In this document: positions 1,235 through 59,615 of the stretch, piece after piece | How the letters are laid out: every line of letters starts with the position of its first letter | Numbering within the stretch: the stretch's first letter is position 1 | Position numbers and translations under genes: made by a program | Notes under the pieces: generated by a model | Seen by the model: the letters and a program-made list of their open reading frames with translations, nothing else | Databases searched by the model: none | What the model was told of the DNA's origin: nothing | Source of the DNA: a virus | Length of the DNA: 64,000 bases | IMG/VR virus record: IMGVR_UViG_3300045988_145100 | Coordinates: 64,001-128,000 of that record | Reading direction: 5' to 3' (one strand)

Positions 1235-4200
1235 TTAATTACCAGTATCAGGTACTGCTGCTAAGAAGTAATGTTGAGTATTACTTTGAATTACATCAAT
1301 TGTAACATCATGAAAAAGATATGTCCCATCAGCCTGTTTTTCATTAACCTGAATTGTTTTTTGCGTAAAACCAGGTATAAAATAGCTATACCATTCAATA
1401 GCCTTCGTATGCTTTGGACTACTTAATCTTTCTACAGAAAGAGTTCCTGTTGTGATATTGTCTGCATTAATAGTTCCAGCATCAATAACACCTTGACAAT
1501 CTATTTGATTTGCAGTAAGAGTTCCTTTAACATTCGCAGCATTACAATATAGTCTATCAGTATCTATTTCATCAGATGTAATAGTATGTGAAGCAATTTC
1601 ATTTGCAGTAATAGCTCCAGTTCTAATATTTATAGTGTCTACTTTTAAGACACCTTCTTCAATCGTACAACCACCAATAGTTCCACTTGAAGCAGTTATA
1701 TCACCAGATATTGTAGCATTAGTTGAATATAAATGACCATCATATGTAACTCTAAAAGGCGCAGTACTCGAATCTGGACTTCCACCATAAAATGCAGATG
1801 AATTAGTGCCTATACCACACTCATTATCTTCATTTACATTTAAAGCTAACCAACCCGAATCAGAAACATATAGATTACCAACTGTTCCTTCTCCATTTTC
1901 TTTAAATTTAAAATGTTTACCAAGACTAAATCCATCTGAACTTAAATAAAATCCGCCAGATGTTGAATCTAAAGTAGTATGACTACCACTATACATAGAA
2001 GCACTCCTACTATCACAAGATAAACTTTTATCTTCAATACTCCAGCCGCCTATGTGACCTAATGTTGCAGTTAGTTCACCTTCGTTATTAACACTGAATT
2101 TTCGACCTAAAGTGATTGCATCTGTTCCTACATAAACAGAACTACTACTTCCTTTTCTACCGTAACTTAAATAGCTATTATCTGCATCATACTTTAATTC
2201 CCAATGTCTACTACCGCTTCTTAAGCTTCCTAATAATAAAGTATCTTGATTTACTCTAAAACAAGAACCTATACTAATACCATCTGGACCTAAGTAGAAT
2301 CCATCAGTAGTATTGTCAAGAGTAGAGTGACCATGACCATAAATCTTAGTATTTTGAGAATCTAATGTAACATTCCCATCAGAACTTTTTAAAGTTGTAT
2401 TTCCAATTTGCCAACCCGCGATTGAGCCTCCACCTTTTGCAGTTACATGCCCCTCAGGAGTAACTATGAAATTACCAGAACCAAACTCAATTTTAGGTGT
2501 TGTTAAATCAATCTGCATACCTTGATTATTCCTATTTTGAGAAGAATAACCAGTTGGCTTTCCATCTTTACCGAATTCTTTATAAAAATTACCACTGTAT
2601 AACAAGGCTTGTGATGTTAATGGGTCAATAATAATTTGTCCTCTTTTATGAAGACCAAATATTGCAGAACCATCTTCCGCATTTAAGAAAAGTGATTGCG
2701 CGCCGCCACTATATCCAAAAAGACCTACTTGGGTATCTTCTGCGGCAGATGTCTTATTCAAATTTCTAAGTCCCATAACCATACCTGTGAATTTATTATT
2801 ACTATCTTTTTTACCTGCGCCTACTTGCGGAGCTAATAAGAAGCTATCTTCATCACCTGTATATATTTTATTACCATCCCAACCATTAATGTTAGACATA
2901 GCATATCTATTATACAACATAATAATTGGTTTAATATGAATAATTCTATTCATTTCAACACCAATTAATACATCATACGCATTAGCATGAGTTATAGCTG
3001 CCATTTTAGAACTATATAATGATTTTAATTGTTCATTATAATCATTTGTAAGATTTTCTTTAATTTCCATATTCTCTTCTGAATCTGATAATTTTCCATA
3101 ATCTAACAGTGTCTTTTTCATATTTTCAAAAATATCGCTGTATTCAGAATAAGAACTTATCTCTGTGAAATGATTTTGTAATGCGACCAAATTATCATAA
3201 GAATTTTTATATGTTGTTTTAATCTTATCAAAAGTAGAAATCATGCGGGAAACAGGATAGATTCCTCCTGTAATTGCACTAGTAGAATCTCCAGAGCAAA
3301 GATTATAGAGTTTTTCTCTTTTACTTTCATACTTTCTAGCACCGCCTTCTTCTGCGATTAATTGATTCTTATATTGAAGAACTACTTCTACTTTATCATT
3401 ATATATATTTACATAATTTATAAATACATTATAAACAGAAATATCAAGTTTTTCTTTTAACCTAGCAAGCTGTCTATCTGTTAAATCAATTTTTCTAGTT
3501 GAAAAAGAAACTGGCAAAGTTTTACCTAACAATGCATTTGTAACATCTCTATTGATATAGTTATTATAAGTAACAAAATCAATAGTTACAATTCCGCCAA
3601 TTTCAGTATGTTGTTGATAATATTTACTAACATCACTTAAAAGACTTTCACTTTCTCTTAAAGTTCTAATCATATCATTATTAAGAGAAATATAATCTTT
3701 TACTTCTGTTAAAACATTTAACCAAGGTTTATATTGGAAATAGCTTAAAACATTTTTTAAAGTTGAATAATTAGTTGTTAAAGTAGTAATTTGATTTTGA
3801 TAATCTTCTGCTTCTTTATCATATTCTGCTTTTGTTTTAGTTAATCCCTCTTTAGTTTTTGAATCAAGAGTAAGTGTTGTCTTTATATAGTTCTTACTAA
3901 TACCACTATCAAATTTTGAAGTAGGCTCAATTACTTTCTGATTTTCTGGTAAGTCTGCACTTCTATATTCTGAAATGTTTAAGTTTTCTGAAGCCTCCCA
4001 TTCATAATCATAAACATTTGAACTATCTATACTATATAGATTATCTACAACAGTAAAGTTAGAACTATTGTCCCACTTTGGATTTGTACCATCTGAAGCA
4101 AATAAGACTTCTGAATATCCGCCATTAAGCACTGGAACTGCGCATTTCTTATTGCCTTTTTCATCTGTATAAATAACATCTGACTCTTTTGCACAATAAG

Positions 4201-6777: not shown

Positions 6778-9700
6778 TTAAATATTTTTTTCATTAACTT
6801 TTTGACTAACTAAATTAGGTAAACTTAATAAAGCTTCTCTAATATCTTGAACACTCTCTGCATTAGGGAACTCTGCAGTAACATTATAGACATTATTATT
6901 AGAAGCATTACTAACATTAGAAGATAAGTAATCTGCACTAACTGGATGAATACTAGAAGTAGCATTTGTCATTCCCGCAAGTTGAGATAATAATGAAGCT
7001 CCTATAGAGCTTGCAATTCCACGAACAAATTCAACTGCATTAAGAATGTTTTCTGTATCATCTTTATTTAAAACTAGCTCTTTTTGATGCAATACTGCAA
7101 GTCTTCCTGAATTATCCCATTCTCCAGTGTATCCGCCAGTATCGAAAGAATATGTATTTACTCTTGCATTATCTAAATAATATTTGTAACCGCTTGTTTG
7201 AACATTTACATTAGGGTCTAACTCTTCATCATATCCATTATCAGATAAAACTTGATTTATATAATCTCTAGCTTCCCAAACAGAACTAATTCTATGGTCT
7301 CTGTAATCTTTTGGCTCTTCTCCATCTCGTCCTATCGCTTTTTCACTATTTCCCGTTCTTTCATATACTGTTACTACTAAACCATCACCATCTGGTGCGC
7401 TATCTACTGAATAGTAATGAACTGTTTCTTCCGGAGGGTTATTATCTGCAATATCAGTAGAATTTCCACCTACACTACCTCCGCTTGATGGAGCTGCAGC
7501 AGCTGGAGTTTTGACAGTAGAAGCACTCTTTGCTGCTAACTCATATTTCTTCATAGTTTCAATATTTTGTTCAACAATAGCCTTAACTTCTTTCCATTGA
7601 GATTCTAATTCTTTTAAACTATTTATGTAATCATCAATTAATTTTTCTGCATTGTCAATATAATCTTCAGTTGTTCCATCTAAATCATCAATAGCACTAG
7701 ATACATCATCTATCGCACTACCCACATCTGTAAAATCTTCACCTGCGGCTGCGCATCCTGCATCAACATCTGCATTATAATCTCCTAATGCAGATGAGCA
7801 ATCCTTTAAAGCTTCATTAACCTGAGATTTAATACTCATTCCATCATCTGCATTCCATGCATCTGCCATTGCTTGTGCAGTTGTATTCCAATAGTCAAGA
7901 CTTTCATCATTAACTCTTTGACCAGCTTCTTGAATATCTTCATAAGATTTAATAGTTCCGTTCTTTAAACCATCTATTAACTCTTGTTCTGCAGCAGTCA
8001 TAGTAGCATACTTCTCTTGGTCTGATTCGTAAATAGCCCATAATTGTTCTGCTGTAACAAGGTTTAAATCTTGTTGTGTTTGTGCAGAGTCTTGATAAGC
8101 TTGAGTAAGAATACCTTCTTTTCCATAATACATATCATAAAGTTGAGCTATTCTACTTTGTCTTTCTTCATCAGATAAGGAAACATCTTTCATAATCTCC
8201 GCGTATTTATTCCAGAAATCTTCTTCATATTGAAGTAAATCATCTAAAGCTTGTTGATTTGCAGATTTTACATATTCATATTTATCATTAATAGCATCTA
8301 ATAAATCTTGTTGCTTTTCCGCAACATTATCTTCATCTGCTACATATTGATAAGACCAATTACCTTCTGCATTTCTAGTAAGCTTCATACTATCTTTTGA
8401 ATTCTGAGCTTGCTCAAGCGCTATTCTAGCTTGTTCTACCGCAAGTGCTTTTTCCGCGAGACCAATGTCATACTCTGTTAAAGTAGCTTTCTTTTCAAGA
8501 TTAGCTAATTGCTCATCCATAATCTTCTTTAACTTTTCTTGATTTTTAGTTCCTGTAGTATCTGCAATTAATTTATTCCATTTAGATTGTAATGAAGTTA
8601 ATTGATATACTCTTTCAACATCATCATAATTACCTTCTGATTTAGTCTTTGTTAAATCATACATGGTTCTAGCCCAATCAGTGTCAACTCCGCCATTAGT
8701 AGCCATTCTAGCTTTTTTAATGATACTATCAATAGTATTATTATATTTACTTTGAATAGTCTTAATGTAAGTCTCTTCTTCTGAACGAAGGTCTTGCATA
8801 GCTTGTTTTTTCTTTTCAAGCCATTTTTCTGCGGATTTACTATCTTCACCATCTAATTGAACAGCTTTCTCATATTGTGCCTGATAAAAATCTGTCTGTT
8901 GTCTTAAAGATTTTAATTGAGCTAAATTATTTTTCTGTTGAGTATCATATAACTTAGCAAGTTTATCATAAGCTGTATCTCCATATAAAAGACTAATTAA
9001 ATTAGCTTGATGTTCAAGCTCTTCATTTAATTCTTCATATTTCTTATTAATATTATCAAGATGCGTTCCTACATCATCAATATATTCTAAATAAGCGTTC
9101 CAACCTTCTTCATATGTTGAGAATAGCTCCTCAGCATCATCTTGAAGTGTCTTGTTAGCTTCTTTTAAAGCATTTTCTGCTTCTGATAAAGAACTAAATA
9201 AATCACTTGTTCCGCCATTCTTCAATTGGTCTATTTCATAGTTGATATTCTCAACTTTCTGAATATCACTTGCAAGAGTTCCATCATTTAAGTTAAATGT
9301 TTGAGCTTTCTTTAAAGCATATTCAATCTCTTGTCCTGCATCACTAAATGTTGATTTAAAGTTTCTGTTAATCTCTTTTAAGAAATCATTCCAGTCTCTT
9401 TCAGCTTGTTTTAAATCTAAGTTAATTTGGATATCTGTTTCCCAAATCTTAAGATTATTTTCAAGTATCTTCTTAGATTCTTCTACAATCTTATCTGTAG
9501 TATCGACCATTTCAGAATAATAAAGAGTATCATATCTTTCAAGATATTTCTTAAATTCTTCATATGTTTCTGAATCATCAACATTACCATACTGTGCAAA
9601 CATAGATGTCGTAATATCTGCATAGTTTGTAAGACGACCTTCCTCATCAAATAATGCACCATAAGCACTTAATGAGCTTCTTAATTCTTCTGCTTCAACC

Positions 9701-12700
9701 TTTTGTGCTTCATATAAAGCTTCATAATTAGCTTTTTGAGTTACTAATAAATCATTTACTTGATTAAGATTATCAATTAATTCTTGTCCGTACAGATTAT
9801 CTTGTTCATCTTCAAGGCGCTCCATTGCATGAGCAACTTCATCAATAGCCTTCTTAAATTCCCAATATCTATCGAACTCATCTTCAAAGTATTTCTTCTT
9901 TGAAGATGAAGCAGCAGAACTACTACCCATAATCTTATCAAAATGCGCATCAATATTATCATAAACATTGCCTATCGCGGCAATCGCATTTTCCTGCGCA
10001 TCAATATACATTGTAACTTGTTGCATTGCTGCAGCATTGTTCTGAAGCTCTGTGTTTGCAGCAGCTAAACCTCTAGCTTCTGCAATTAAAGTCTCTGCAT
10101 AACTCATTGTCGATGTAGTCAACTTTTGAGTCATCTCTAATTCCATAGCTGCATTAACTACATTATCGCTTGATAAAATAGATTCAACTTTAGCTACAGT
10201 AATTCTTGCTTGACTTACTGCCATATCCGCAAGTTTAGCCTTAGTCATCTCTTTTAAGTCAGCAGTATTTAACTTAAACTGACTTCCATCCCACTCTAAT
10301 GCTGAAAGATATTTAGGTTCAAGTTCAAGGATAGCTTGAAGATTATCCATAGTAAAGTAACCATTAGCATTATAATCCTTCATAGCAGATGTTAGAGTCT
10401 TATACCCAGTTTGAATTTCATCAATAACACTACTATTAGCTTCTTGCGCTTTTTCGCCAGCTTTAACAACCTTGTTCCAATCTTCTGAATCAACGGTAAG
10501 GTCTTTAACTAAATCATCAAGTTTCTCTAACTGGTCTGAATATTTTTTATTACTAAGCTTTTTAAAGAAATTTACAACATCACTATCATCACTGCCATAG
10601 CCTTGATTTTTCATAGCATCTTTTAAATCTCTAATAGTGTCACTATTAAGACCACTTAAATCATTGCCATTAAACTTATCAACTAATTTACCAATATCAT
10701 CTTGAGTGAAATTAGCATCTGAATCTTCTGATAATAATTCTAATTCTTTTTGAGCTTCTTTATAGTCATCTATTTGCTCTTTATATTTTTCTTTATATGT
10801 ATCAGCTTCTAATTGAGCTTCTTCTCTTGCCGCATCACCAGTCTCTTCAATTAACTTTAATTTCTCGCCATAGAAAGATGCCATAAGAGTAGCTTGAGAT
10901 GACCAATCCATATTATTTAAAGTTTTTTCATCAACTGATACACCTTCAGATGTAACACCGGAAAAATCAAGAGTATCAAGAATTTGTTTCTTTTGCTTAT
11001 CTGTTAGTTCTGTTTTATCAGTAATTAAACCATCAACTAAAGTTTGTGCATAATCAGCTTCGCCTTTTTCTGCACTTCCTTTAAATACATTAGGAAGCTT
11101 TTCTGCCAATGAAGATAAAGCTTTTTCTGTATTATTACTATTCTTCTCCATTGCTTCACTAAGCAACTGAGAAAAATTATCACTAAAGAAACTTTGTTCA
11201 TAAGTAGAATAGTTATCTAAAGCTTTCGTCATAGATTCATAATATTGTAAACTATTTAATTCAGAAGCTATTTTTTGACTATCTTTCCATTCTTGAACAG
11301 CATTTTGGTCAACTTCTTTAGTATATATATAATTACCGCCTGCGCCAACTTGATTATAAGACTTATTATGGCTATTGTATTCTTCTTCAGTTATTTCACC
11401 TTTTGCAAAAAGACCCGTACCAAATAAACCTTTATCTTGATAGATATATTTAGCATTATCCCCAACAGCATTAAGATAATCTTCAGTAGTCTTCTTATCA
11501 ATTTCATCTTTCTGTTTTTGAATATCTTTAAATACATCTGTAGAAGTATTAGACATAATAGTGTCAGCAACTGTTGCAGTTTGAGCATATTCTTTTATAC
11601 TATCAATAGCAGACATATACGAATTTGCCCATTTTGAAGCATCCTCAATAGAATCATAAACACCTTTACTTAACGCTTCATGGACCATATTTCTCCATGT
11701 TGTAGTATAGTCTTCAATAGAATTAATCGCATCAAAGTTTTGGGCATCTACAATCATAGTCTTTTGGGCTTCATGCGCAGTATCTATAGATTCTGTTAAA
11801 CCATCAATTTGGTCTTTTGCACTTGATAAATACTGTCTTAATTGTTTTGCTGCAGAAGTATCAGAATCATTTAATACAGATTGAACTGCATCCGCATCTG
11901 TCTTAATTGCAGTAGCTAAACTTTGGAGACTAATTTTATCATTTGTAAGGAATTGAACTCCTAATTCTTGAAGTTGACTAGCTAAATTCTTTTCTTTAGA
12001 ATTTCTTGCAACCATACCTTTTAAGTCAATAGTCTCAGTTCCATTAACAAAATCTCTTCTACCTGAATCTTCTTCTGCACTTGCACTTAATTGGTCTTTA
12101 AGAGCTATTTCATAGTTTTTCTGTTCTTGCTTTGCAGAATTAAGTGTTTTCTCTGTTTTTTTACTCTCAATAGACTTCATAGCTTCTTCGAGACTCTTAT
12201 ATTCTCCACTTAATGCTTTTACTGCAAGCTCTTCTTCACCATATTGCATACAAAGGTCATAGCTTTGTTTCTTTAATGCGGAAGCTGATAATTCTCCATC
12301 ATTATACTTATTATATAATTCATCATAAGCTTTCTTTAATTCACTAACTTTATCTGATTCTTCTTTATACTGCTTTGTTCTTTCTGTTGTATTTTGTGCT
12401 ACTCTAAGACTTTCTTCTGCCTCTTTTTGTAAATTAGCTACAACCGCTTTATGAATAAGGTTATACACGGCATACGCTGCTGTTGCAACCTGAACAGCAA
12501 TACCAATTGCGCCCATTGCCTTTGAAACTTTACTTGCGATTTGAATTCCACGACCTTCAACCGCTTGAGTTGTTGCTACAATATCTTGCTCTTCTTGTGC
12601 GGCAGCTTTTCTCTGCTTTAAACTTTCAGTAAAGTTTGCCCATTCATTATCATTTGTAATAAGACCCTTTGTAATTCCTGTAAGTCTAGAATCTCTAGTT

Positions 12701-15700
12701 CTATATTGCGAATCAATTTTTGCTCCACTTACTTTAGAAAGCCAATCTTTTCTTTCATCAGCACTCATTTTAGATAAATTATCTGGCAAGTCTATTGTTT
12801 GACTTTCACCTATCAAACTTGCAAAATCTGATAATTTCTTTTGTTTACCTTTATCTTTTCCAAATACACTTTTCTTTTCAAGATATTCTTTAAATGAAGC
12901 ATCAATACTATCTTTTGTTTCTGCTAAATTGTATTTTCTGTCTTCTAATGCTTTTTGGTCTTTTAAAGTAGCTCTATTACCAATAGTTCCCGAAAGCATG
13001 TTTGAAAATTGATTAAATGATTTCTTTGTTTGAAGAAAACCAGACACACTAAAGCCCAATTGAGTAAAAAGTCCAATTATAGAACCAATACTTAATTTTA
13101 AATCTCCAGAAAATAATTCTTCTATAGATTCAAAAACAGAATAAGCACTATTAGCAGTCATCGCAAAACTACTCATAGCACTCGCGCCATTAGCAAAATT
13201 CTCGCCAATACTACCTACAGAAAATCCCATCTCATTAATAGAATCAACTACTGATTTAGAATGATTTTGAACATCTAATAAAGATTTTACATAATCTGCT
13301 AAAGACTTATCTGAAGCCTTTATCGCTTTATGTTGTTCATCAAGTGCGTCAGATATCTTTGTAACATCTGTAGCTTCAAAACCGTAATTTTGTAAAACAC
13401 CTCTGAGATTGCCACTAAGAGTATCTCGATTTGTAAGATAACTCGTTCTATTGTTTTCAATCATCTGTAGCATATGAGCATAGTCTGTTTTATCTGCACC
13501 TGCTACATTCTGACCAGTAATAAGCTTTTTAATATTACCTTCTTTTTTATATTCATTTAATTTCATAAGGTCATCAATCATTCGCTTATTTTCATTTGAA
13601 GAATTATAAAGAGTAGATAATGTTTCTTGCATATCTTTTAAAGAAAATTTACCTGATTTAACTTTATTCATATCAAATAAATTTAAAACTTTATTACTAG
13701 TAGAAATATTAGTTTCATTTCCAGCATATGCTAATTCTGCAGCATTATAGTCTTCAAAAAATTGATTCTGAAGAGCTTCCTGTGCTTCTTCATCAAAATT
13801 AGGATTAACCATGCCTTCAGCTAACTTTTTAGTATCTCTATATTTTTCAAGGTATGATTTATATACTGTTTTATTAATATTCGCACTATTTGTTGGTCTT
13901 CGTTCTTTTTCTGAGAATCTATAATTACCATTCTCATCTGCAGGGTCAACTTGATGTATCATATCCCAATAGCGGCTATTTCTTGCTCTGGTTTTTTCTA
14001 TACCTTTATAGTTTTGACTAAGATAATATTCACTAGGTAATTCATCTGCTTCACCTAATAATACTTTCTTTGCATAAAGCTCTTGTAAAGTATTTTCAGG
14101 TAAATTTTTTGCATAATAAGCTTTGTTTACTTCTGAAGTAATTTTTTCACGAATTTTTTTACTGTCTACGTTGTCTAAAGATAAATTAGTGCTTTTAAAT
14201 CTCTGACCAATAGATGAAATATCGTCAGATGCAGCGTGTCTAGCTTTATTTTTAGTATCATAAATCTGAGCTGTAACTTCAGCTTCTTCTGTTAATTGTT
14301 TTAATTGAGCTTTTTCATTAGCTATTTGTTCTATTTGAGATTCAGTTAAATTTGCATTTATTTTAGCTAACTCTTTTTTCTTCTCAAAAATAGCATTTTC
14401 AATATCATAATTTGCTTTCATATTAGCTACTTGCGCACGGTCTTCTGGCGTTCTTATATCCATTCCCGCAATCATAGCTTTATATTCTTTTTGAGCCTTC
14501 TCTCGGGTTGCCTCAATTTCTTTGCCCATAATACCAAATTTAATTTTAAAGTTATCAACAACTTTATCAACATATTTGCTTATTTGAGGACCTTGATTAG
14601 AAATTATAGTATTTGCTAATAAAATAAAAGCAGTTCTAACTCCACCAACAGAATCAACAAAATGACCAAATCCTTCAATAGCTTTACTAAGGAATTTCAT
14701 TAAATCAACCATAGTTTTACTATCAATAAGATTTGAATAAATTTCTTCTAATGAAGTTTTTATTTTCTTAGATGCGGCATCCCATGATTCTGCATAAATA
14801 TCAGCTTGCTGTTGTAAAGAACCTTCTGCACCCTTAGCTATATTTAAGTTCTCTTGGAAGACATCCCATTTATCCATTAAGGCAATTAATTGGCTATACT
14901 GACGAGTACCTGCAACTGCTTGCGCAACTGCAATCTGTGTATCCTTAGAAATGGTTTTCCATTTAGAACCCATATCGTCTAAGATATCATCCATATCACG
15001 AACTTCGCCTTTTGAATCTTTAATATTAACACCAATAGATTCAAGAGCCTTAGAATACTGACCTAATGTTGTTCCATCATCTAAAGTATTACCTAACTCT
15101 AAGTCCTGGATACGTGCGAATAATGTCTTAAATGCAGTACCTACAGTATCTGCGGACTGACGAGTTTCTGCAACAACAGTTGCAAGAGCAGAAGTAGCAT
15201 ATTCGTATGATAAACCTACAGTATTACCAATAGAAGCAAACTTCTCAAGACCTGCTGCGATTTCATCTGTACTAGATGCAGTTGCCGCACCTAATGCAGT
15301 AAGAACATCTGCAAAGTATTCTACGCTTTTTGAACCATCATTAAAGTTATTCCAAATAGCTGTCATATAAGAAGAAACATCCGCCGCAGTCTCTCCTGTA
15401 ACACTTGCCATCTTTGTAACTGCATCAGTACGTTCCTTAACTGCGGCAGTATCCAGACCTTGCTGATAGAAGATTAATGCCGCATTTGTATATGCAGTTG
15501 TTGTTGTATTTAAAGCTTTGGCAGATTCATTTGCTTGTTTAGCAAATTTAGCCATATTATCTGAACTTTCTCCAGATACTATTCTAATTTCATTTAATGA
15601 TTTATCAAGCTTTCTACTATATTCAAAAGCTTTACTAAATTCTGTTTGTACTTGATGAACGGCACCTGAAGCTACAGTCCATTTCGCACTATTTGTAAGA

Positions 15701-16110
15701 GTAGTAGAAAAACTCTTTAAAAGTCCTTCAGACTGTCTTAAAGGAACTTCCGCAGACATAATAGATTGCGCTAAAGATGTAAATGCTTTTTGACCTTGAG
15801 GACCTAATGATTCTAAATTCTTACGAACTTGAGAAATAGTAGTACCAGACTTATTTAAGTTTGTAACAAATTTAGATAAATCAAGGTTATCTCCCTTAAA
15901 AGTCATTGATTGTGATAATATACCATTTAATTTACTAGCTTCTATTACAGCTTTGGAAATATCAGAAGATAAGGTATTAGTTGCTGTATTCTGCTTTGCG
16001 GCAACCGATAAATTAACTATCTGTTTTTGTAAATCTTGAATTTGAGCTTTTGCTCTTGAGGTATCGGTATTGAACCCTATATCAATATCAATTCTTTTTC
16101 TTCCTGCCAT
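6778..16110 (-). CDS. Tail tape measure protein, 3110 aa
   Basis: Giant ORF that is coiled-coil-rich throughout. The N-terminal region contains a TP901-family TMP core-like segment (...TAIWNNFNDGSKSVEYFADVLTALGAATASSTDEIAAGLEKFASIGNTVGLSYEYATSALATV...). Position between tail tube/chaperone genes and the fibre gene fits a TMP. Confidence 0.8.
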   Translation of the reverse strand: MAGRKRIDIDIGFNTDTSRAKAQIQDLQKQIVNLSVAAKQNTATNTLSSDISKAVIEASKLNGILSQSMTFKGDNLDLSKFVTNLNKSGTTISQVRKNLESLGPQGQKAFTSLAQSIMSAEVPLRQSEGLLKSFSTTLTNSAKWTVASGAVHQVQTEFSKAFEYSRKLDKSLNEIRIVSGESSDNMAKFAKQANESAKALNTTTTAYTNAALIFYQQGLDTAAVKERTDAVTKMASVTGETAADVSSYMTAIWNNFNDGSKSVEYFADVLTALGAATASSTDEIAAGLEKFASIGNTVGLSYEYATSALATVVAETRQSADTVGTAFKTLFARIQDLELGNTLDDGTTLGQYSKALESIGVNIKDSKGEVRDMDDILDDMGSKWKTISKDTQIAVAQAVAGTRQYSQLIALMDKWDVFQENLNIAKGAEGSLQQQADIYAESWDAASKKIKTSLEEIYSNLIDSKTMVDLMKFLSKAIEGFGHFVDSVGGVRTAFILLANTIISNQGPQISKYVDKVVDNFKIKFGIMGKEIEATREKAQKEYKAMIAGMDIRTPEDRAQVANMKANYDIENAIFEKKKELAKINANLTESQIEQIANEKAQLKQLTEEAEVTAQIYDTKNKARHAASDDISSIGQRFKSTNLSLDNVDSKKIREKITSEVNKAYYAKNLPENTLQELYAKKVLLGEADELPSEYYLSQNYKGIEKTRARNSRYWDMIHQVDPADENGNYRFSEKERRPTNSANINKTVYKSYLEKYRDTKKLAEGMVNPNFDEEAQEALQNQFFEDYNAAELAYAGNETNISTSNKVLNLFDMNKVKSGKFSLKDMQETLSTLYNSSNENKRMIDDLMKLNEYKKEGNIKKLITGQNVAGADKTDYAHMLQMIENNRTSYLTNRDTLSGNLRGVLQNYGFEATDVTKISDALDEQHKAIKASDKSLADYVKSLLDVQNHSKSVVDSINEMGFSVGSIGENFANGASAMSSFAMTANSAYSVFESIEELFSGDLKLSIGSIIGLFTQLGFSVSGFLQTKKSFNQFSNMLSGTIGNRATLKDQKALEDRKYNLAETKDSIDASFKEYLEKKSVFGKDKGKQKKLSDFASLIGESQTIDLPDNLSKMSADERKDWLSKVSGAKIDSQYRTRDSRLTGITKGLITNDNEWANFTESLKQRKAAAQEEQDIVATTQAVEGRGIQIASKVSKAMGAIGIAVQVATAAYAVYNLIHKAVVANLQKEAEESLRVAQNTTERTKQYKEESDKVSELKKAYDELYNKYNDGELSASALKKQSYDLCMQYGEEELAVKALSGEYKSLEEAMKSIESKKTEKTLNSAKQEQKNYEIALKDQLSASAEEDSGRRDFVNGTETIDLKGMVARNSKEKNLASQLQELGVQFLTNDKISLQSLATAIKTDADAVQSVLNDSDTSAAKQLRQYLSSAKDQIDGLTESIDTAHEAQKTMIVDAQNFDAINSIEDYTTTWRNMVHEALSKGVYDSIEDASKWANSYMSAIDSIKEYAQTATVADTIMSNTSTDVFKDIQKQKDEIDKKTTEDYLNAVGDNAKYIYQDKGLFGTGLFAKGEITEEEYNSHNKSYNQVGAGGNYIYTKEVDQNAVQEWKDSQKIASELNSLQYYESMTKALDNYSTYEQSFFSDNFSQLLSEAMEKNSNNTEKALSSLAEKLPNVFKGSAEKGEADYAQTLVDGLITDKTELTDKQKKQILDTLDFSGVTSEGVSVDEKTLNNMDWSSQATLMASFYGEKLKLIEETGDAAREEAQLEADTYKEKYKEQIDDYKEAQKELELLSEDSDANFTQDDIGKLVDKFNGNDLSGLNSDTIRDLKDAMKNQGYGSDDSDVVNFFKKLSNKKYSDQLEKLDDLVKDLTVDSEDWNKVVKAGEKAQEANSSVIDEIQTGYKTLTSAMKDYNANGYFTMDNLQAILELEPKYLSALEWDGSQFKLNTADLKEMTKAKLADMAVSQARITVAKVESILSSDNVVNAAMELEMTQKLTTSTMSYAETLIAEARGLAAANTELQNNAAAMQQVTMYIDAQENAIAAIGNVYDNIDAHFDKIMGSSSAASSSKKKYFEDEFDRYWEFKKAIDEVAHAMERLEDEQDNLYGQELIDNLNQVNDLLVTQKANYEALYEAQKVEAEELRSSLSAYGALFDEEGRLTNYADITTSMFAQYGNVDDSETYEEFKKYLERYDTLYYSEMVDTTDKIVEESKKILENNLKIWETDIQINLDLKQAERDWNDFLKEINRNFKSTFSDAGQEIEYALKKAQTFNLNDGTLASDIQKVENINYEIDQLKNGGTSDLFSSLSEAENALKEANKTLQDDAEELFSTYEEGWNAYLEYIDDVGTHLDNINKKYEELNEELEHQANLISLLYGDTAYDKLAKLYDTQQKNNLAQLKSLRQQTDFYQAQYEKAVQLDGEDSKSAEKWLEKKKQAMQDLRSEEETYIKTIQSKYNNTIDSIIKKARMATNGGVDTDWARTMYDLTKTKSEGNYDDVERVYQLTSLQSKWNKLIADTTGTKNQEKLKKIMDEQLANLEKKATLTEYDIGLAEKALAVEQARIALEQAQNSKDSMKLTRNAEGNWSYQYVADEDNVAEKQQDLLDAINDKYEYVKSANQQALDDLLQYEEDFWNKYAEIMKDVSLSDEERQSRIAQLYDMYYGKEGILTQAYQDSAQTQQDLNLVTAEQLWAIYESDQEKYATMTAAEQELIDGLKNGTIKSYEDIQEAGQRVNDESLDYWNTTAQAMADAWNADDGMSIKSQVNEALKDCSSALGDYNADVDAGCAAAGEDFTDVGSAIDDVSSAIDDLDGTTEDYIDNAEKLIDDYINSLKELESQWKEVKAIVEQNIETMKKYELAAKSASTVKTPAAAAPSSGGSVGGNSTDIADNNPPEETVHYYSVDSAPDGDGLVVTVYERTGNSEKAIGRDGEEPKDYRDHRISSVWEARDYINQVLSDNGYDEELDPNVNVQTSGYKYYLDNARVNTYSFDTGGYTGEWDNSGRLAVLHQKELVLNKDDTENILNAVEFVRGIASSIGASLLSQLAGMTNATSSIHPVSADYLSSNVSNASNNNVYNVTAEFPNAESVQDIREALLSLPNLVSQKVNEKNI

Positions 16111-16227: not shown

Positions 16228-16755
16228 TTAGCCCAATTTTGTCATAATTTCTTTTAATAATCCTAATGAATTAGGGTCTTCTACTTCCTTAATAATATTG
16301 TCTAAATCTGCCTGTGTAACAGCATAATCTTCATTAACAGCTTCTAAAATACCTAACACAGAATTACGATAAGCATAAAAATTCTTAATTAATTCATCTG
16401 TAGTTGATTTTAAATAATCATATTCATCTTTTGGTATTAATGAAATAACCGCACTTATAACATCATTACTTTCAAGAATGTTATATAAGTTAGTAGGGTC
16501 TTCTTTTTCTTCATCTGTAAAGAAAATATCTGTATAATGATATATAACCTCTAAAGCAAAATAAACAGATACTTTAAAAGGATTGGCAAAACTATTCTTT
16601 TCATCAAAAGAATTTTTTAATACATTTGTCGCAATCTCTATTTTTTCTTCAATAGGGATATATTGCTTTACTTTTATAGGGTGATTATTTATAGTTGCTC
16701 CCTCATAATATAAATCAGAATTTACTGATATATCTAACTCTTTAAAACTTGGCAT
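16228..16755 (-). CDS. Hypothetical protein in the tail-assembly-chaperone position
   Basis: 175-aa acidic ORF immediately upstream of the TMP gene; call is by position only. Confidence 0.35.
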   Translation of the reverse strand: MPSFKELDISVNSDLYYEGATINNHPIKVKQYIPIEEKIEIATNVLKNSFDEKNSFANPFKVSVYFALEVIYHYTDIFFTDEEKEDPTNLYNILESNDVISAVISLIPKDEYDYLKSTTDELIKNFYAYRNSVLGILEAVNEDYAVTQADLDNIIKEVEDPNSLGLLKEIMTKLG

Positions 16756-16816
16756 TATTAGCCCTCCTTTTATTTCTTAATTATAGTATATCATATTTTT
16801 TTTAAATTGTCAATTT

Positions 16817-17992
16817 CTAAGTCTTCTTATTAAAATCATTTAGAACGATATCTAAAGCTTTATCTATCTGAGAATTCATTAATTCTGCACCATTTTTTAA
16901 ATCTTCATATTTTTTTTCTTTAAAATACAACTCTTTTAGAACTTCTCTTTTCTTTAGTTCTTCAGTGTTTGTATTTAGTAATTTGATTAATCTATCTAAA
17001 TTTAACATTATAGTTGAAGTAAGCTGAAGAGAAGCTCCACTATCTTTCATATTCGCTTTAACAGAATAATGATGAAACATATATGTAGAATTATCTCCAC
17101 CTTGAGCTGCTTTAACATTATCTCGTTCAATTTTAATAGCAAAATCGTTTAATGTGAATAATTTTTCGTCTCTTTGTGCCTCACTAAAAGCTGTATCAAA
17201 ACCTTCCGCTACATGTCCAAAATTGAAACTTACTTCTTCCTTTTCTTTCCCTTTTCCTTTTTGGTACTTTGGAAATGGTAATTTTACATAATAAGTTGAA
17301 TTTCCTTCTTTTTTAAGATGCCCACTTTGTAATGCTAAATTGTAATATTTAGAAAGTTGTGCGCCTTGTGAATCTGAAATATTTTGACTATCTATTATTC
17401 TTTGCTTCTCTTCATTAGAAAGTATTCCTTCTTTTTGAACTAACTGTTTTCCTTCCAATCTTTCTTGTCTAATTTGTTCTAATAGCTTACTAGTCACTAT
17501 TTTAATTTCGTTTACTGAGCCAGTTAAAACTCTTAATAGCTCATAATCATTCAAATCTAATAATTTAATATTATTTGTATCATCACCAAAATATATATGA
17601 TAATCAATTATTTGGTCTGTTAAAAATTCTCTAGTTTTCATAATCCATAAATAAACTTCAGCATATAACTGTGTTAAATGATGGTTATATATTTTTATCA
17701 TTTGATTTTTCGTCTGTATATCTTTTGGTTTTAATTCAGTATATCTCTTTGTTATAAAATCTCGCATTTGTTTTACAGTATTTCTTTTATTAGATTCATT
17801 TATAAGGTCTTCTTTTAAGCTTTTTAATTTTGTTAAAATATTGAATAATTTTTCTCTAATATTATCTACTTCTGTAGAATTAAATATTCCTTCTACATTA
17901 GTAATTATCTCTTCAATTTCATTAGCAGTAAATAATGCTGTATCAGTATTTTTATTACTTTTTCTTGACACTGTCTCACCTCCTATAAACAA
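16817..17992 (-). CDS. Hypothetical tail-module protein, 391 aa
   Basis: ORF between the major tail protein terminator and the chaperone-position gene; no recognisable motif. Confidence 0.4.
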   Translation of the reverse strand: MFIGGETVSRKSNKNTDTALFTANEIEEIITNVEGIFNSTEVDNIREKLFNILTKLKSLKEDLINESNKRNTVKQMRDFITKRYTELKPKDIQTKNQMIKIYNHHLTQLYAEVYLWIMKTREFLTDQIIDYHIYFGDDTNNIKLLDLNDYELLRVLTGSVNEIKIVTSKLLEQIRQERLEGKQLVQKEGILSNEEKQRIIDSQNISDSQGAQLSKYYNLALQSGHLKKEGNSTYYVKLPFPKYQKGKGKEKEEVSFNFGHVAEGFDTAFSEAQRDEKLFTLNDFAIKIERDNVKAAQGGDNSTYMFHHYSVKANMKDSGASLQLTSTIMLNLDRLIKLLNTNTEELKKREVLKELYFKEKKYEDLKNGAELMNSQIDKALDIVLNDFNKKT

Positions 17993-18030
17993 AAAAAATG
18001 CGGGGTCGAGTATAATAACCCGACCCCGCT
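17990..18030 (-). terminator. Rho-independent terminator after the major tail protein gene and its extension ORF
   Basis: Stem gcggggtcg (18000-18008) / cgaccccgc (18021-18029); plus-strand A8 at 17991-17998 gives a U8 tract in the minus-strand transcript. Confidence 0.7.
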
Positions 18031-18057: not shown

Positions 18058-18361
18058 TTACGCGATTGTATAAGTTCCAGTAGCTGTCTTAGTATTGTCT
18101 TCTACACACTTAACGACAATCTTAACTTCTTCATCAGTAGTTCCTCCTGCTGCTGTATAGTCAACTGTTACTTTATTTCCTACTACTGTTGTGTTCTCTG
18201 TTGCATCAAGAGCGTTTACAGTAGAGCTTACTAATGCACAAGTTCCTTCTGTTTTTCCGTCTTTCTGAACTGTAACATCCCACGATACTTTTCCTACAAC
18301 ACTACTATCAGGCTCTCCTAATGAAATAGTGTATACCGGCTCTGCCGGCTCTTCTTTAGGG
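18058..18361 (-). other. C-terminal Ig-like (Big_2-type) extension ORF in the +1 frame, candidate product of +1 recoding at CCC_UAA
   Basis: The overlapping ORF (...VYTISLGEPDSSVVGKVSWDVTVQKDGKTEG...VTVDYTAAGGTTDEEVKIVVKCVEDNTKTATGTYTIA) lies in the +1 frame relative to the tail protein ORF. The overlap is GCT ACA CCC TAA A; Pro-tRNA re-pairing CCC to CCU at a stop codon is the classic +1 mechanism. Confidence 0.5.
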
Positions 18362-19321
18362 TGTAGCTTTGTGAGTATCTGCTGGAACATTTTTATGGTA
18401 TGTTTCATCCTCTGTTGTTCCATCTGTACCTACAACCTGGATAGTACACATAACTTTCTTTGTTCTATCAAAGTAAGTATATCCAGGGAATGCATCCATT
18501 GTGAATGTGAATGTACTTGGGTCTCCACTAGAAGCCATTGTAAATGTCATTGCTGACTGTACTTTAGCTTTAGGAATTGTAATTGTAGCTGCCATATCTT
18601 TACCAGTAGCTTCACTTCTGAATAAAGTATCAGCTTCAACATAGTAATATCCACCGAAATCTTCTGGAGCAATAGTAATTTCAGATACACCTTTCTTCAT
18701 TGCTACATAGAAGTCTAACTTAACAACAGTACCCTTAGTAACAGCTAAAGATGCATCATCCTTAATTGTAAATTCAGCATTATCGCTAACTTTTACAAGA
18801 TAATCATTTTCTGTTCCTGTTGCACCTGTAAGTGTAACATCTGAATAATAATCAATACCTGCACCTGAACCATCAAGCTTTGTAGCATATACTGGAATAT
18901 CTCCGCAGATAGTAAGCTCTTCTTCATTTGTACCTAATTCATCATTAAGTTCTGCTAAGCTTATTTCTACCTTACCTTCATCACCAACTGTTGCATCAAT
19001 AGTAACATGAACATGCTGAATTGCGTTTTCACCAGCTTCAAGTAATCCTGCACCTGAAAGTACAGCAAGACCCTGTGGAGAAATTAAAGCATCTTCAACT
19101 GTAAATGTCATAGTCTTTTCACCTTCCCAAGCAATAAGACGAGAGTTACCTTTACCACCTTGAGCATATACTGTTGTTGTAGCCTGCTCTAAAGTAGATG
19201 TTTTTGCACTATCAATGAAAAACGCTGGCTGTCCAGCTTTGAAAGTTTTCTTTCCGATTTTTTGGTTATTTGAAGTAGCTTTAAAAGTTACATCGCATAT
19301 TTCGCGGACACCAAACTTCAT
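18356..19321 (-). CDS. Putative major tail (tube) protein, short form, 321 aa
   Basis: Position between connector genes and the tail chaperone/TMP genes; beta-rich composition; ends CCC-TAA exactly where an overlapping +1-frame Ig-like ORF continues. Confidence 0.5.
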   Translation of the reverse strand: MKFGVREICDVTFKATSNNQKIGKKTFKAGQPAFFIDSAKTSTLEQATTTVYAQGGKGNSRLIAWEGEKTMTFTVEDALISPQGLAVLSGAGLLEAGENAIQHVHVTIDATVGDEGKVEISLAELNDELGTNEEELTICGDIPVYATKLDGSGAGIDYYSDVTLTGATGTENDYLVKVSDNAEFTIKDDASLAVTKGTVVKLDFYVAMKKGVSEITIAPEDFGGYYYVEADTLFRSEATGKDMAATITIPKAKVQSAMTFTMASSGDPSTFTFTMDAFPGYTYFDRTKKVMCTIQVVGTDGTTEDETYHKNVPADTHKATP

Positions 19322-19351
19322 TATATTTTTCCTCCTTAAATAAATAATTTG

Positions 19352-56881: not shown

Positions 56882-56999
56882 TTGATATTTATAAAAATTT
56901 ATGTTATAATATTTATATAATAAATAAGACACAAACAGCAATTTTTTAGCTTATAAGAAAGCACTACTCTGTTAAAGTAGATAACTGTGTCTTGTGTTT

Positions 57000-57073
57000 G
57001 GTCCTTTAGCTCAGCTGGTTAGAGCGCTCGTCTCATAAGCGAATGGTCCTGGGTTCGAGTCCCAGAAGGTCCA
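57000..57073 (+). tRNA. tRNA with anticodon CAT (Met / fMet / Ile-lysidine class)
   Basis: Hand-folded cloverleaf: acceptor ggtcctt/aaggtcc (one T-T mismatch), D-arm gctc-agctggtta-gagc, anticodon loop ctCATaa, T-arm ctggg-ttcgagt-cccag. Confidence 0.6.
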
Positions 57074-57582
57074 TTTAAGAATTTATCAGTTCTTAATGCG
57101 TGCATACAGTATTAGATATGTTGACTTGCTTATCAAATAGTTATAAGTCGTGAGTTACTGCGTTAAAGATGACAAGTTGTATGATAATAGTTTTCTTAAA
57201 GCTTTTATTAGGGCGGCAACCTGCCGATAACAAATAGCCATTTTTTAAAAATTTTTGGACAAAGTAATTTAAGTATTATAAAATATTTTTTATATAAAAT
57301 ACAAACTTGAAAAATATAAAAAAATATGATATAATATTTATATAAAGAAAAGAGGTAAGTTACTACCCATGCTTCTCCTCTATAAAAAAGAAGGTATGCA
57401 GGGTGAGGTTGACGGAGAGCGACTAAGGCTGCGGTTTACCCAAGAGAATAAAATCTCCTACTAGCGAAATCTAGTTAAAACTACCAAATTACTCATAGTC
57501 GTATAACAGTAATTTGATTTTTATAAAAATTTATGTTATAATATTTATATAAGATAAAGAAAAAAATATTTTTCCTCTCTCA

Positions 57583-57653
57583 TTCAAAGGTAGGATGCAC
57601 GCCTGTTAAGCGTAGAATCTGGGTTCGAATCCCAGGGGAGGAGCTTCCAGTTG
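57583..57653 (+). tRNA. tRNA-Asn (GTT)
   Basis: Acceptor tcctctc/gggagga, anticodon stem (c)acgc/gcgt(a) with loop ctGTTaa, T-arm ctggg-ttcgaat-cccag. Confidence 0.55.
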
Positions 57654-57915
57654 CGGAACTGGTTAAATAAAACCGAGTAGTCAGTTGTCAGTAACCTTGT
57701 TAAAACTGTCAATGTTCATATCCGAAGAGATTTCAGTGTTCGGTAGAGGTTATGAATGAAGAATGTAGTGAGTTCGATTCTTGCTTGTCCGCCGTAGTTG
57801 GACACATGGTGGCATTTGAAGTATTCCTTGTTGGTTGATTAAATGAAACATGTTGCCGCATGTGGATTAAAATACCAAAATACCTTGACTATAATGACGG
57901 CAATCATTATAGAAA

Positions 57916-57989
57916 TGCTTGTTAGTTTAAATTAATTGGAAAAACACTCCGGGAAGGGGAGATGTTGGGTTCGAATCCCACACAAGTGA
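57916..57989 (+). pseudogene. Degenerate tRNA-like element: canonical T-arm but aberrant D and anticodon arms
   Basis: ttggg-ttcgaat-cccac T-arm and a pairable acceptor, but a 13-nt D-loop, a 4-bp anticodon stem and loop gggaagg with purines at positions 32/33. Confidence 0.25.
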
Positions 57990-58264
57990 TTTTGTCAAAG
58001 CAAAGACATTAAAACTCGCTGATTATTAGGTGTGAATAATAGTCGTTGGCTACATGCGTAAGAAAAATAGTTCGAGAGAGCTATCGGAGCCGTAGAGGAG
58101 AAAGATATCGGCATATGGATAACACACTCCTAGATGCGAGAAATCAAATTAAAGGAAGATGGTATATGCAGCTAATAGAGAGAGTAAAGAGCGCTAGCTT
58201 GTAGCGAAACAACCTGCCAAAAGTAAGTTTATTGGTTTATCTTACATTGGTGAAAAACCTTTTA

Positions 58265-58335
58265 ATTTTATAATCTGGTTTAGTTTAATGGTAGAACCCT
58301 GGCTTTGTAACCCAGTAACGAGAGTTCGACTCTCT
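58265..58335 (+). tRNA. tRNA-Thr (TGT)
   Basis: Acceptor tctggtt/aaccaga, D-arm gttt-aatggta-gaac, anticodon stem ctggc/cccag (C31-C39 mismatch) with loop ttTGTaa, T-arm gagag-ttcgact-ctctc. Confidence 0.55.
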
Positions 58336-58373
58336 CAACCAGAATTAGTACTTTAGTACTAGAAAGGAATGTT

Positions 58374-58652
58374 ATGAAAATATGGCTTGATGATTTAAGA
58401 AAAGCACCTTGCGGATATGTGTGGTGTCATTCAGTTAATGAGACTATATTATTTATTGAGAAGAATAAAAGTGATATAGAATTAATTGATTTAGACCATG
58501 ATTTAGGTGATTTCGCTAAAGATGGCGGCGATGCTATTTATTTAATGGATTATTTAATAGAAAAGAAGTTATTCTATAAGCTAAATTTTCATACTGCAAA
58601 TCCAGTAGGCTTAGCAAATATGTTAAGATTGTATGATAGATACTGGGTATAA
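58374..58652 (+). CDS. Small hypothetical protein embedded in the tRNA array
   Basis: 92-aa ORF (MKIWLDDLRKAPCGYVWCH...) with SD aaaggaatgtt, lying between tRNA-Thr and tRNA-Ala. Confidence 0.4.
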   Translation: MKIWLDDLRKAPCGYVWCHSVNETILFIEKNKSDIELIDLDHDLGDFAKDGGDAIYLMDYLIEKKLFYKLNFHTANPVGLANMLRLYDRYWV

Positions 58653-58725
58653 GGGGCTGTAGCTCAGTTGGGAGAGCATTCGTTTTGCAAGCGAAAGGTC
58701 GTGGGTTCGAACCCCACTAGCTCCA
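58653..58725 (+). tRNA. tRNA-Ala (TGC)
   Basis: Acceptor ggggctg/tagctcc (two G-U pairs), D-arm gctc-agttggga-gagc, anticodon stem ttcgt/gcgaa with loop ttTGCaa, T-arm gtggg-ttcgaac-cccac. Confidence 0.6.
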
Positions 58726-58735
58726 TTAATCATAT

Positions 58736-58764
58736 TTGATTTTTATAAAAAAATATGATATAAT
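58736..58764 (+). promoter_or_regulatory. Consensus promoter copy inside the tRNA array
   Basis: ttgatt-N17-TGa-tataat. Confidence 0.6.
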
Positions 58765-58929
58765 ATTTATATAAGATATGAAAAAAGAAAAAATGTGAAA
58801 AAGATTTTGTAGTAGCATTAAAAATGACAATATACTAATCAGAAAATCTTTATGCGGAAACGCTCTGTAATTAGTATTTCAAGTTTAAATTAGATTGTTT
58901 GGCGTTAACAATAAAATAAAACGCCACTT

Positions 58930-59010
58930 GCGGGATTGGTGAAATTGGCAAACACATACGATTTAAGCTCGTACGCTTTAAGCTTGTGAGTTCGAGTCTC
59001 ACATCCCGCA
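58930..59010 (+). tRNA. tRNA-Leu (TAA), type II
   Basis: Acceptor gcgggat/atcccgc, TG-gtg-aaattggcaaa-cac D-arm as in bacterial tRNA-Leu, anticodon stem tacga/tcgta with loop ttTAAgc, 12-nt variable arm, T-arm gtgag-ttcgagt-ctcac. Confidence 0.65.
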
Positions 59011-59135
59011 CTAACCTAAGAAATTAAATTGTGGTATAAAGACATGATAACTAAGTCTTGTAAGAGATTATTTTATCTTTTATAAAAGTTTTCTTCTCTA
59101 CTAGTGAGTAACAAGCTTTTGAAGTTATCTTATAT

Positions 59136-59205
59136 GTATCATTCGTATAATGGTTTGTACGCTGGGTATTCCCTAGAAGAGTGAGTTCGAATCTTACATG
59201 ATACT
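59136..59205 (+). pseudogene. tRNA-like pseudogene with a 5-nt anticodon loop
   Basis: Perfect acceptor gtatcat/atgatac, normal D-arm and T-arm (gtgag-ttcgaat-cttac), but an anticodon arm ctggg-tattc-cctag. Total length 70 nt. Confidence 0.35.
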
Positions 59206-59313
59206 TTTTAGGCACTAACAGCGAATTTGATGATTCTAACAAACAAAAATATTTGTATGTAAAATGCTAAAGGCTTTATATCCTTTAATTAATCAATAGT
59301 GTCTAGTTTTTCT

Positions 59314-59385
59314 TGAGAGATAATATAATGGTTAGTATGCCTCTCTGATACGGAGGTCATCCGAGTTCAACTCTCGGTCTCTCAA
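59314..59385 (+). tRNA. tRNA-Ile (GAT)
   Basis: Acceptor tgagaga/tctctca, anticodon stem cctct/ggagg with loop ctGATac, T-arm ccgag-ttcaact-ctcgg. Confidence 0.6.
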
Positions 59386-59586: not shown

Positions 59587-59615
59587 TTGATTTTTATAAA
59601 AAAATATGTTATAAT
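59587..59615 (+). promoter_or_regulatory. Consensus promoter copy inside the tRNA array
   Basis: ttgatt-N17-TGt-tataat. Confidence 0.6.

Follow-up and report, generated by a model that had tools for sequence, protein, structure and literature searches.

A putative programmed +1 frameshift at CCC_UAA predicted to add an Ig-like domain to the tail tube protein of a large gut siphophage

Introduction

The tail of Bacillus phage SPP1 contains two forms of one tube protein, gp17.1 and gp17.1*, in a ratio of about 3:1; that they arise by a frameshift has been proven experimentally (PMC6316719; PMC8718954). As both papers summarise from Auzat et al. 2008, ribosomes pause at a rare CCC codon in the sequence CCCUAA and shift to the overlapping CCU; the extension carried by gp17.1* is an FN3 domain, which has an immunoglobulin (Ig) fold, is non-essential and is thought to aid adhesion. 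Here we report the analysis of a 64,000-nucleotide stretch of viral DNA (positions 64,001 to 128,000 of IMG/VR record IMGVR_UViG_3300045988_145100), called the window in the following, in which a tail tube gene ends with the same CCC_UAA signal and is followed in the +1 frame by an open reading frame (ORF) for a predicted Ig-like domain. Comparison with relatives makes it very probable that a programmed +1 frameshift at CCC_UAA yields a minor tube isoform of 420 amino acids (aa) that carries this domain.

In prfB, the gene for release factor 2 (RF2), the shift occurs at CUU_UGA with the help of an upstream Shine-Dalgarno (SD)-like stimulator and senses the level of RF2, which makes it an autoregulatory device. 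In phages, CCC_UGA is found in the tsh gene of Listeria phages PSA, A118 and A500, which gives Tsh and Tsh-L (Zimmer 2003 and Dorscht 2009, as covered in PMC5009743 and PMC3082878). The capsid gene cps of PSA has, according to the same two papers, ACA_CCC with a sense codon and a pseudoknot, and Lactococcus phage Q54 has CCC_UAA (PMC5009743; PMC3082878). Ig-like domains are also present in frame at the C-terminus of tube proteins, as in lambda gpV (Big_2), T5 pb6 (Big_2) and YSD1 (Big_1), and in the model of Fraser et al. promiscuous Ig-like domains are added to phage structural proteins either in frame or through -1 or +1 shifts (PMC8718954, PMC5009743). That phage structural proteins bear such domains by these routes is an established pattern (PMC5009743).

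Results

A CCC_UAA site at the end of a tail tube gene

The locus lies on the minus strand of the window, as does every gene in this region, and is 100% identical to a 147-kb IMG/VR contig. Its elements are the following.

19331..19337, minus strand: SD sequence AAGGAGG of the tail tube gene, read from the sequence; its duplex with the anti-SD (-11.1 kcal/mol) is among the strongest in the window.
18356..19321, minus strand: tail tube (major tail protein) gene, frame 0, YomU_Tube family, 321 aa, 34.4 kDa.
18356..18361, minus strand: putative shift site CCC_TAA ("shifty stop"), where CCC would re-pair as CCU (+1) with AAA as the next codon; recognised by sequence, conservation and codon rarity.
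18058..18357, minus strand: +1-frame extension, 99 codons and TAA, 10.3 kDa, with the Pro/Glu-rich linker KEEPAEP and then a predicted 7-strand Ig-like beta-sandwich.
17990..18029, minus strand: intrinsic terminator closing the transcription unit of tube and extension, with a 12-bp stem that has 9 GC pairs, then ATTTTTTTTG.

An earlier note on this DNA, made from the sequence, had described a 321-aa tube candidate ending in GCT ACA CCC TAA, and such a gene is indeed present on the minus strand at 18356-19321. Its 3' end reads AAA GCT ACA CCC TAA, with CCC at 18361-18359 and TAA at 18358-18356, and the protein ends in ...THKATP. When C_CCT_AAA is read in the +1 frame, 99 sense codons follow (18357..18061, KEEPAEPVYTISLGE...TGTYTIA, with EEPAEPVYTISLGEPDSSVVGK as a sample peptide from within) up to a TAA stop at 18060-18058. 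The terminator hairpin begins about 28 nucleotides (nt) past this stop; it lies 3' of the extension and not of the tube stop, and this position is kept in those relatives whose sequence extends that far. The extension of about 100 residues running into a strong terminator, as proposed before, was therefore found as 99 codons in front of a 12-bp, 9-GC hairpin with a T-run at 18029-17990. A +1 slip at CCC is predicted to give a product of 420 aa and 44.7 kDa beside the 34.4-kDa short form, with the junction peptide ...HKATP-KEEPAEP (...THKATPKEEPAEP).

CCC is the rarest proline codon in the window, with 11 of the 346 proline codons (3%; 0.72 per 1000 codons), and the overlapping CCT accounts for 43%. 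The tail tube gene is the only one of the 49 window ORFs to end with CCC and a stop.

The identity of the upstream gene as a tail tube gene, of the YomU_Tube family of SPbeta-like and large siphophages, holds on several kinds of sequence evidence. The protein matches PHROG 2729 "virion structural protein" (E 7e-52), and in Bacillus phages Thrax, Nate, PJN02, Kirov and Izhevsk distant homologues bear the annotation major tail or tail tube protein. Precomputed PF27173 YomU_Tube matches exist for relatives of the tube that are 93-94% identical (loci L004, L006, L008 and L012 of the survey below), and in these the gene order is that of a tail module: YomW, YomV_2nd, YomU_Tube, extension, an ORF of 384-517 aa, YomO and PhageMin_Tail (tape measure). 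The earlier proposal of a tail tube is borne out by these three lines, namely PHROG 2729, PF27173 and the order of the module. A sequence search of PDB with the tube-family profile gave no match, which leaves the family without a direct connection, at the sequence level, to the solved SPR/SPbeta tube. The GenBank relatives are large siphophages of Enterococcus, Lactococcus (949 group), Bacillus (Tsamsa-like) and Brevibacillus, and the gut phage Phass-1.

Comparison with described recoding sites

SPP1 gene 17.1, which we read directly, ends GCT CCC TAA and continues in an 87-codon +1 ORF; downstream of this ORF lie a T-rich stretch, genes 17.5/17.5* for the chaperones and then the tape measure. 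The two loci share the CCC_UAA signal at the end of the tail tube gene, with a rare CCC overlapping a frequent CCU, an extension of 87 aa in SPP1 and 99 aa here that has the Ig superfold in SPP1 and is predicted to be Ig-like here, and the succession of extension, T-rich stretch, chaperones and tape measure. They differ in the tube itself, which has 177 aa in SPP1 and is unrelated in sequence to the 321-aa YomU_Tube-family protein, in the extension, which is FN3 in SPP1 whereas the one here belongs to no Pfam family, and in the downstream RNA, which folds with z -0.3 in SPP1 and with z -4.4 here, where a conserved GC hairpin lies 6 nt past the stop. The genome here is also large (~147 kb, with a tape measure of 3110 aa). 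Because tube and extension are both unrelated in sequence to those of SPP1, the locus would represent an independent occurrence in a different tube family.

The Listeria sites resemble the present one, where the shift is putative, in a +1 shift on a rare CCC beside a stop, at the end of a major tail gene and in a low-GC host background, and ACA_CCC in PSA cps consists of the same two codons as here. In contrast, tsh has AAA CCC_UGA where the window has UAA (UAG in L012), and the proteins show no sequence relationship. As at the prfB site, the slip proposed here would take place in the P site while a stop codon occupies the A site; prfB differs in that its upstream SD-like element has no counterpart here and that the purpose here would be two structural isoforms rather than regulation. 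The earlier note had named prfB and the Listeria phages as precedents; the Listeria parallel stands, and the closest precedent, SPP1 gp17.1* with an identical CCC_UAA, had been missed.

The putative shift site is conserved and the extension is under selection in the +1 frame

Relatives were surveyed for the tube gene among the best 80 of 388 IMG/VR relatives and 22 relatives from metagenome-assembled genomes (MAGs). ACA CCC TAA is invariant in L004-L011, L014-L017 and L097, always with the extension in the +1 frame; the assemblies that carry it come from Hadza, ENA, Logan and IMG/VR data and represent different samples and assemblers. In L012 and L013 the extension is 42% identical and the junction reads ACA CCC TAG, with the stop changed and CCC-stop kept. 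The extension is 94-99 aa long in its clade. Pairwise dN/dS (ratio of nonsynonymous to synonymous substitution rates) is 0.16-0.47 in the +1 frame and exceeds 1.2 in the other two, with 0.19-0.23 for divergent pairs at dS ~0.8-0.9. Differences cluster at third positions of the +1 frame (e.g. 17/15/41), and no lineage has a stop or a frame-disrupting indel, the only length change being one in-frame codon indel. Combined, these comparisons point to purifying selection on the extension that is specific to the +1 frame.

They also bear on the view that slippage at CCC_TAA is incidental or negligible and that the extension is the decaying remnant of a once in-frame domain, no longer functionally expressed. 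Gurvich et al. caution that frameshifting at CCC_UGA can be incidental, as for E. coli pheL (PMC3082878); this extension is missing from L001, the closest relative in GenBank, and from most of the family, and CCC TAA is present without any cargo in L107. However, a relic would not remain intact down to 42% identity, nor would a dN/dS of ~0.2 at dS up to 0.9 and the freedom from stops and disruptive indels be expected of it, and the terminator sits after the extension in the relatives examined. We regard this view as very improbable.

Clustered at 90% identity, the tube protein belongs to a group of 92 members, of which the full-length ones are listed with 321-322 aa, and the exact protein occurs on 24 contigs. 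An in-frame fused 420-aa form was found neither in large protein searches (billions of proteins) nor in the assemblies retrieved, which excludes a sequencing error: the single-nucleotide error at the junction that would have made the two ORFs one plain frame is not supported, as more than 10 independent assemblies have the same frames. In L009 (2088-3053; ERZ28563739) the tube gene is split by an in-frame stop into ORFs of 139 aa and 114 aa, with CCC TAA and the extension intact; either the variant is defective or the assembly contains an error.

The overlap and its start codons

18362..18429, minus strand: overlap zone in which the +1 frame is open and evolution follows frame 0, with ATGs at 18423, 18408 and 18390.

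The +1 frame had been thought to become readable exactly at the junction. This was not the case: it is open from ~18429, 24 codons before the tube stop. Because three ATGs lie in this stretch, ORF finders predict an ORF of 116-121 aa (18058-18423) that stands by itself. A gene of its own that starts at an ATG in the overlap and encodes a free Ig-like protein, for instance a decoration protein, is accordingly an alternative to be weighed. It is what ORF and gene callers annotate in every assembly, overlapping genes are common in this genome, and the ATG at 18423 is preceded at a usable spacing by a weak AGG-type SD (-5.2 kcal/mol). This pairing is nevertheless weaker than that of 78% of the window genes (the three ATGs have -5.2, -3.3 and -3.1 kcal/mol, in the order given above, against a window gene median of -8.9), and no start codon is common to all extension-bearing lineages: the first ATG is ACG in L006 and L007, two independent samples, and the second and third are missing from L012. 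Substitutions in the overlap favour third positions of frame 0, and the +1 peptide there, which would provide the 17-22 additional residues, is poorly conserved. Within the first ~25 codons of the extension there is no ATG, GTG or TTG, though these codons are conserved at the protein level. A separate gene would also leave unexplained why the rarest proline codon and a stop never vary at the very point from which the +1 peptide is conserved, and we consider it improbable.

The open overlap also means that the sequence of the window by itself does not fix the position of a slip. Other routes into the +1 frame would be a sequencing or assembly indel, transcriptional slippage, a -2 shift, or a +1 shift elsewhere in the 24-codon overlap, which contains an A5 run at 18391-18395. 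Against these stand the same frame arrangement in the independent assemblies already mentioned and the uniform listed length of the full-length tube proteins. There is moreover no homopolymer of at least 8 nt on which RNA polymerase could slip, and the A-run is broken in relatives (AAGAAT, AAGGAT). The overlap peptide is not conserved, and no more than 2 codons separate the opening of the +1 frame from CCC TAG in the sister clade formed by L086, L091 and L094. As ACA CCC with a stop is the sole invariant shift-prone motif there and fits all the observations, a ribosomal +1 slip at this motif is favoured, and any other route appears most improbable.

Reassignment of the stop codon was ruled out for the window, since the stop is TAA, a change of frame is needed in any case, and the 3110-aa tape measure and other long ORFs are intact under genetic code 11.

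The genome is compact, and a long ORF in another frame beyond a stop is nothing exceptional in it: 8 of 50 window ORFs are followed by a +1 run of at least 50 codons, which resembles the neighbouring genes. What goes beyond chance is the combination of the sole CCC-stop gene end, a start that is unconserved and has a weak SD, the invariant site and purifying selection specific to the +1 frame.

A GC-rich hairpin downstream of the stop

18335..18349, minus strand: hairpin 1, GC-rich, GCCGGC-AGA-GCCGGU; candidate frameshift stimulator, supported by the fold (z -4.4) and by conservation of the pairs.
18299..18332, minus strand: hairpin 2, with weaker support; present in the minimum free energy (MFE) structure of the window (z -4.4) and of L006 (z -4.0), with 89.7% of cells paired.

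The 72 nt from CCC onward fold at -24.5 kcal/mol, with z -4.4 relative to dinucleotide shuffles. Hairpin 1, which is made of two rare CCG proline codons, begins 6 nt past the stop, at nt +13 counting from the first P-site base. By analogy with the known geometry of -1 frameshifting it would sit roughly where mRNA enters the ribosome. All 6 of its pairs are kept across the six relatives in the alignment, L012 showing two compensatory double changes. A metagenome scan for further extension-bearing lineages added only one 99%-identical copy and a genome scan none; as no new lineage came from them, the covariation evidence stays thin. Synonymous change is lower in the first 22 codons of the extension than in the rest (3/18 versus 26/56; Fisher p 0.029). 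The downstream stimulatory structure for which the earlier note had suggested a test is accordingly present as a conserved GC hairpin in a region of z -4.4, and its part in stimulation is conjectural; from conservation and position, hairpin 1 may be a reasonable candidate.

The extension is predicted to be an orphan Ig-like domain

Seven strands, in identical positions behind a KEEPAEP linker that lacks structure, were predicted by each of two AlphaFold2 runs on the extension, the second of which used a slightly broader alignment (predicted local distance difference test, pLDDT, 76). The models predict a two-sheet sandwich of ~7 strands of the Ig/FN3-like kind, and the extension would on this basis be an orphan Ig-like beta-sandwich of ~90 residues.

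Its sequence has few relatives. Pfam gave no family for the extension of the window or for the L012 version even at E<=1, PHROGs gave no match, a PDB sequence profile search gave only a chance match (E 0.73), and tblastn against GenBank phages found nothing. An exhaustive HMMER search of 1.8 billion representative proteins returned four matches: two close relatives, the L012-type version and a protein with Big_1 repeats. Kinship with Big_1 was rejected, for the last match has E 4.6e-6 summed over 12 repeats, yet hhalign to a Big_1 repeat gave a probability of 11%. Assignment to Big_2 (PF02368) was likewise rejected in the absence of a significant profile match. The domain had been called Ig-like of the Big_2 type before; the predicted structure agrees with the Ig-like fold, and the hidden Markov model (HMM) search that had been proposed for Big_2 or Ig-like families came out negative, as the Pfam result shows.

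In its small, predicted Ig-fold domain, its flexible linker and its place at the C-terminus of a siphophage tube protein, where it would be expected to project outward, the extension resembles those of lambda gpV, T5 pb6 and YSD1. The domains of these phages, however, need no recoding, are carried by all subunits and fall into recognised Pfam families, unlike the one here.

Other C-terminal arrangements in the tube family

In the sister clade L086/L091/L094, whose tubes are ~52% identical, the gene ends with ACA CCC TAG (~2930-3060 of each locus), followed by a 38-codon +1 ORF and a terminator. The 38-aa product is an acidic tail, STDSTDTKNEVKTDSLKSDTVNDGLDDINIDEKSILIK. With the +1 frame opening so close to CCC TAG, this tail is reachable only by a slip at CCC, and in this clade the shift site may have a cargo of another kind, not Ig-like. 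MT835936 (L001, 3060-3190) has GTA CCC TAG and a degraded copy, in which the same tail has been moved to another frame by an A-run difference.

In L023-L027, L030-L034 and L038, -1 ORFs of 135-159 codons lie at T_TTT_N (for example GTT TTT CCG TAG and TCT TTT TAA), from ~2900 of each locus, and a terminator follows. They encode a conserved domain, ANQGKL...WI.LDI.TG..DIT...GHF.LWLKA, for which Pfam has no match and which is fused in frame in L026 and L029. These ORFs look like -1 frameshift versions of tube decoration. Further branches of the family have unrelated in-frame C-terminal domains, and the extension of the window has no sequence similarity to any of the other C-terminal extensions of the tube family. 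In-frame and apparently -1-frame extensions are found within this one family, as the model of Fraser et al. predicts. The arrangements suggest that the end of the tube gene is a recurrent attachment site for decoration modules, by whichever recoding route is available. A more specific version, in which ACA-CCC-stop is an old conserved recoding "socket" whose cargoes have been exchanged and the GC hairpin is a true 3' stimulator that SPP1 lacks, is a tentative idea that we hold to be possible and rather doubtful.

Among MAG-binned relatives, L098, L102, L103, L106 and L108 (tube ends ~2440-2630) have either GGA AAA AAA TAA with an 89-codon -1 ORF, or TCG GGG GAA and a stop with -1 ORFs of 76-482 codons. 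Their frame is open for just 4-10 codons ahead of the stop, and they could be further recoding sites or simply adjacent genes. A 101-codon +1 ORF in L075 has an SD and an ATG of its own and was for that reason rejected as a case of recoding.

Two IMG/VR relatives, L056 and L066, have a single in-frame TAG at tube codon 7 (~2019-2021; MKFGVR-TAG-I), where glutamate is invariant in 42 other aligned homologues, and the relative Phass-1 is classed in the "code 15 clade". This suggests that the tube family has TAG-recoded members; the window itself has no sign of TAG recoding.

Neighbouring genes

The tape-measure ORF of 3110 aa lies at 6778-16110 on the minus strand (3067 aa in relatives) and at ~1.5 Å per residue would imply a tail roughly 0.45 µm long. 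An ORF at 16817-17992 (minus strand), which is conserved in relatives (384-517 aa) and has no recognised family, separates the tube terminator from the YomO-like chaperone gene. Its listed TTG start at 17992 falls within the T-run of the terminator, and the true start is probably the GTG at 17971 after a GGAGGTG SD. From 16228 to 17992, no chaperone frameshift of the G/GT-type -1 kind is evident. On the plus strand, 56999-63939 contains a tRNA gene array of 19 members, which continues up to the window's edge (Met x2, Asn x2, Thr, Ala, Leu, Ile, Glu x2, Tyr, Asp, Gly, Gln, Phe, Lys, Ser x2, Arg); neither a tRNA-Pro nor a suppressor tRNA is among these 19.

Discussion

By its sequence, the locus has all the features that define the shifty-stop +1 class in phage major tail genes. 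A rare CCC lies directly 5' of the tube stop and overlaps a CCU in the +1 frame; the +1 ORF has neither a conserved start nor a strong SD and is under purifying selection; and the shift site is kept among diverged carriers of the extension. A +1 slip at the CCC-stop that adds an Ig-like domain and gives two isoforms, as the earlier note had proposed, agrees with all the comparative tests run, and it is with respect to these that we call a programmed frameshift very probable.

In the mechanism that we infer, as regards the slippage itself and its efficiency, expression of the long form and the roles of hairpin and domain, ribosomes on the abundant tail tube mRNA would reach the rare CCC with this codon in the P site and UAA in the A site. 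Termination there by the majority would set free the tube subunit of 321 aa. In the remaining minority, the peptidyl-tRNA-Pro would leave CCC and re-pair on the overlapping CCU, AAA would enter the A site, and 99 more codons would be translated. The product would be a 420-aa subunit composed of the tube domain, the Pro/Glu-rich linker and the Ig-like beta-sandwich of ~90 residues. Both isoforms would co-assemble in the tube, with Ig-like domains displayed outside on some subunits, where they would probably bind cell-surface or mucosal glycans weakly. The conserved GC hairpin 1 may raise the frequency of slipping from its position at the mRNA entry channel.

A number of observations weigh against a programmed frameshift of this kind or against parts of it. 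Firstly, frameshifting in E. coli at CCC_UGA by itself does not generally exceed ~2% (PMC3082878), and the efficiency of the slip could be low without stimulators. There is no SD-like stimulator upstream of the shift codon, GATACTCACAAAGCTACA having no GGAGG-like element, and UAA followed by A or G is not obviously a poor terminator context. Secondly, the support for downstream RNA structure has its limits: hairpin 2 is missing from the MFE structure of L012 (z -1.2), covariation for the hairpins comes from essentially one divergent sequence, L012, in a region that is also protein-coding, and synonymous change in the first 22 extension codons is not below the tube gene average, for which reason the difference given above is not decisive. 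Thirdly, the Lachnospiraceae-binned L107 has AAT CCC TAA at its tube end (~2392-2400) with one +1 codon only after the stop; CCC-stop can occur in the tube family without an extension. The weak SD (-5.2 kcal/mol) and the ATG at 18423, on which a separate gene would depend, are present in most relatives. Lastly, in the first AlphaFold2 run one of the five models was confident (best pLDDT 93, the other four near 50), and Foldseek against PDB and BFVD gave no match at E<=0.001, the top matches being again Ig-type domains.

The locus is a clean and well-supported instance of an already known mechanism and leaves current concepts unchanged; its main use lies in annotation and as comparative material for recoding studies. 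In every assembly retrieved, gene callers split it into a tube gene and an orphan "hypothetical protein" of 116 aa. Once +1 recoding at CCC_stop is recognised, the tube gene and the orphan ORF are merged and the orphan is explained. The tube family offers natural variants side by side, with +1 sites at CCC_UAA and CCC_UAG, apparent -1 sites at T_TTT_N and in-frame fusions, and these, together with the candidate 3' hairpin, could be used to probe what sets the ratio of the isoforms. For the phages themselves, tail-tube decoration of the SPP1 and Listeria type would be extended to large (~147 kb) uncultured siphophages of the human gut with tubes of the SPbeta-like YomU family, and the Ig-like domains that these phages would expose on their surface are candidates for adhesion to cell-wall glycans or mucus.

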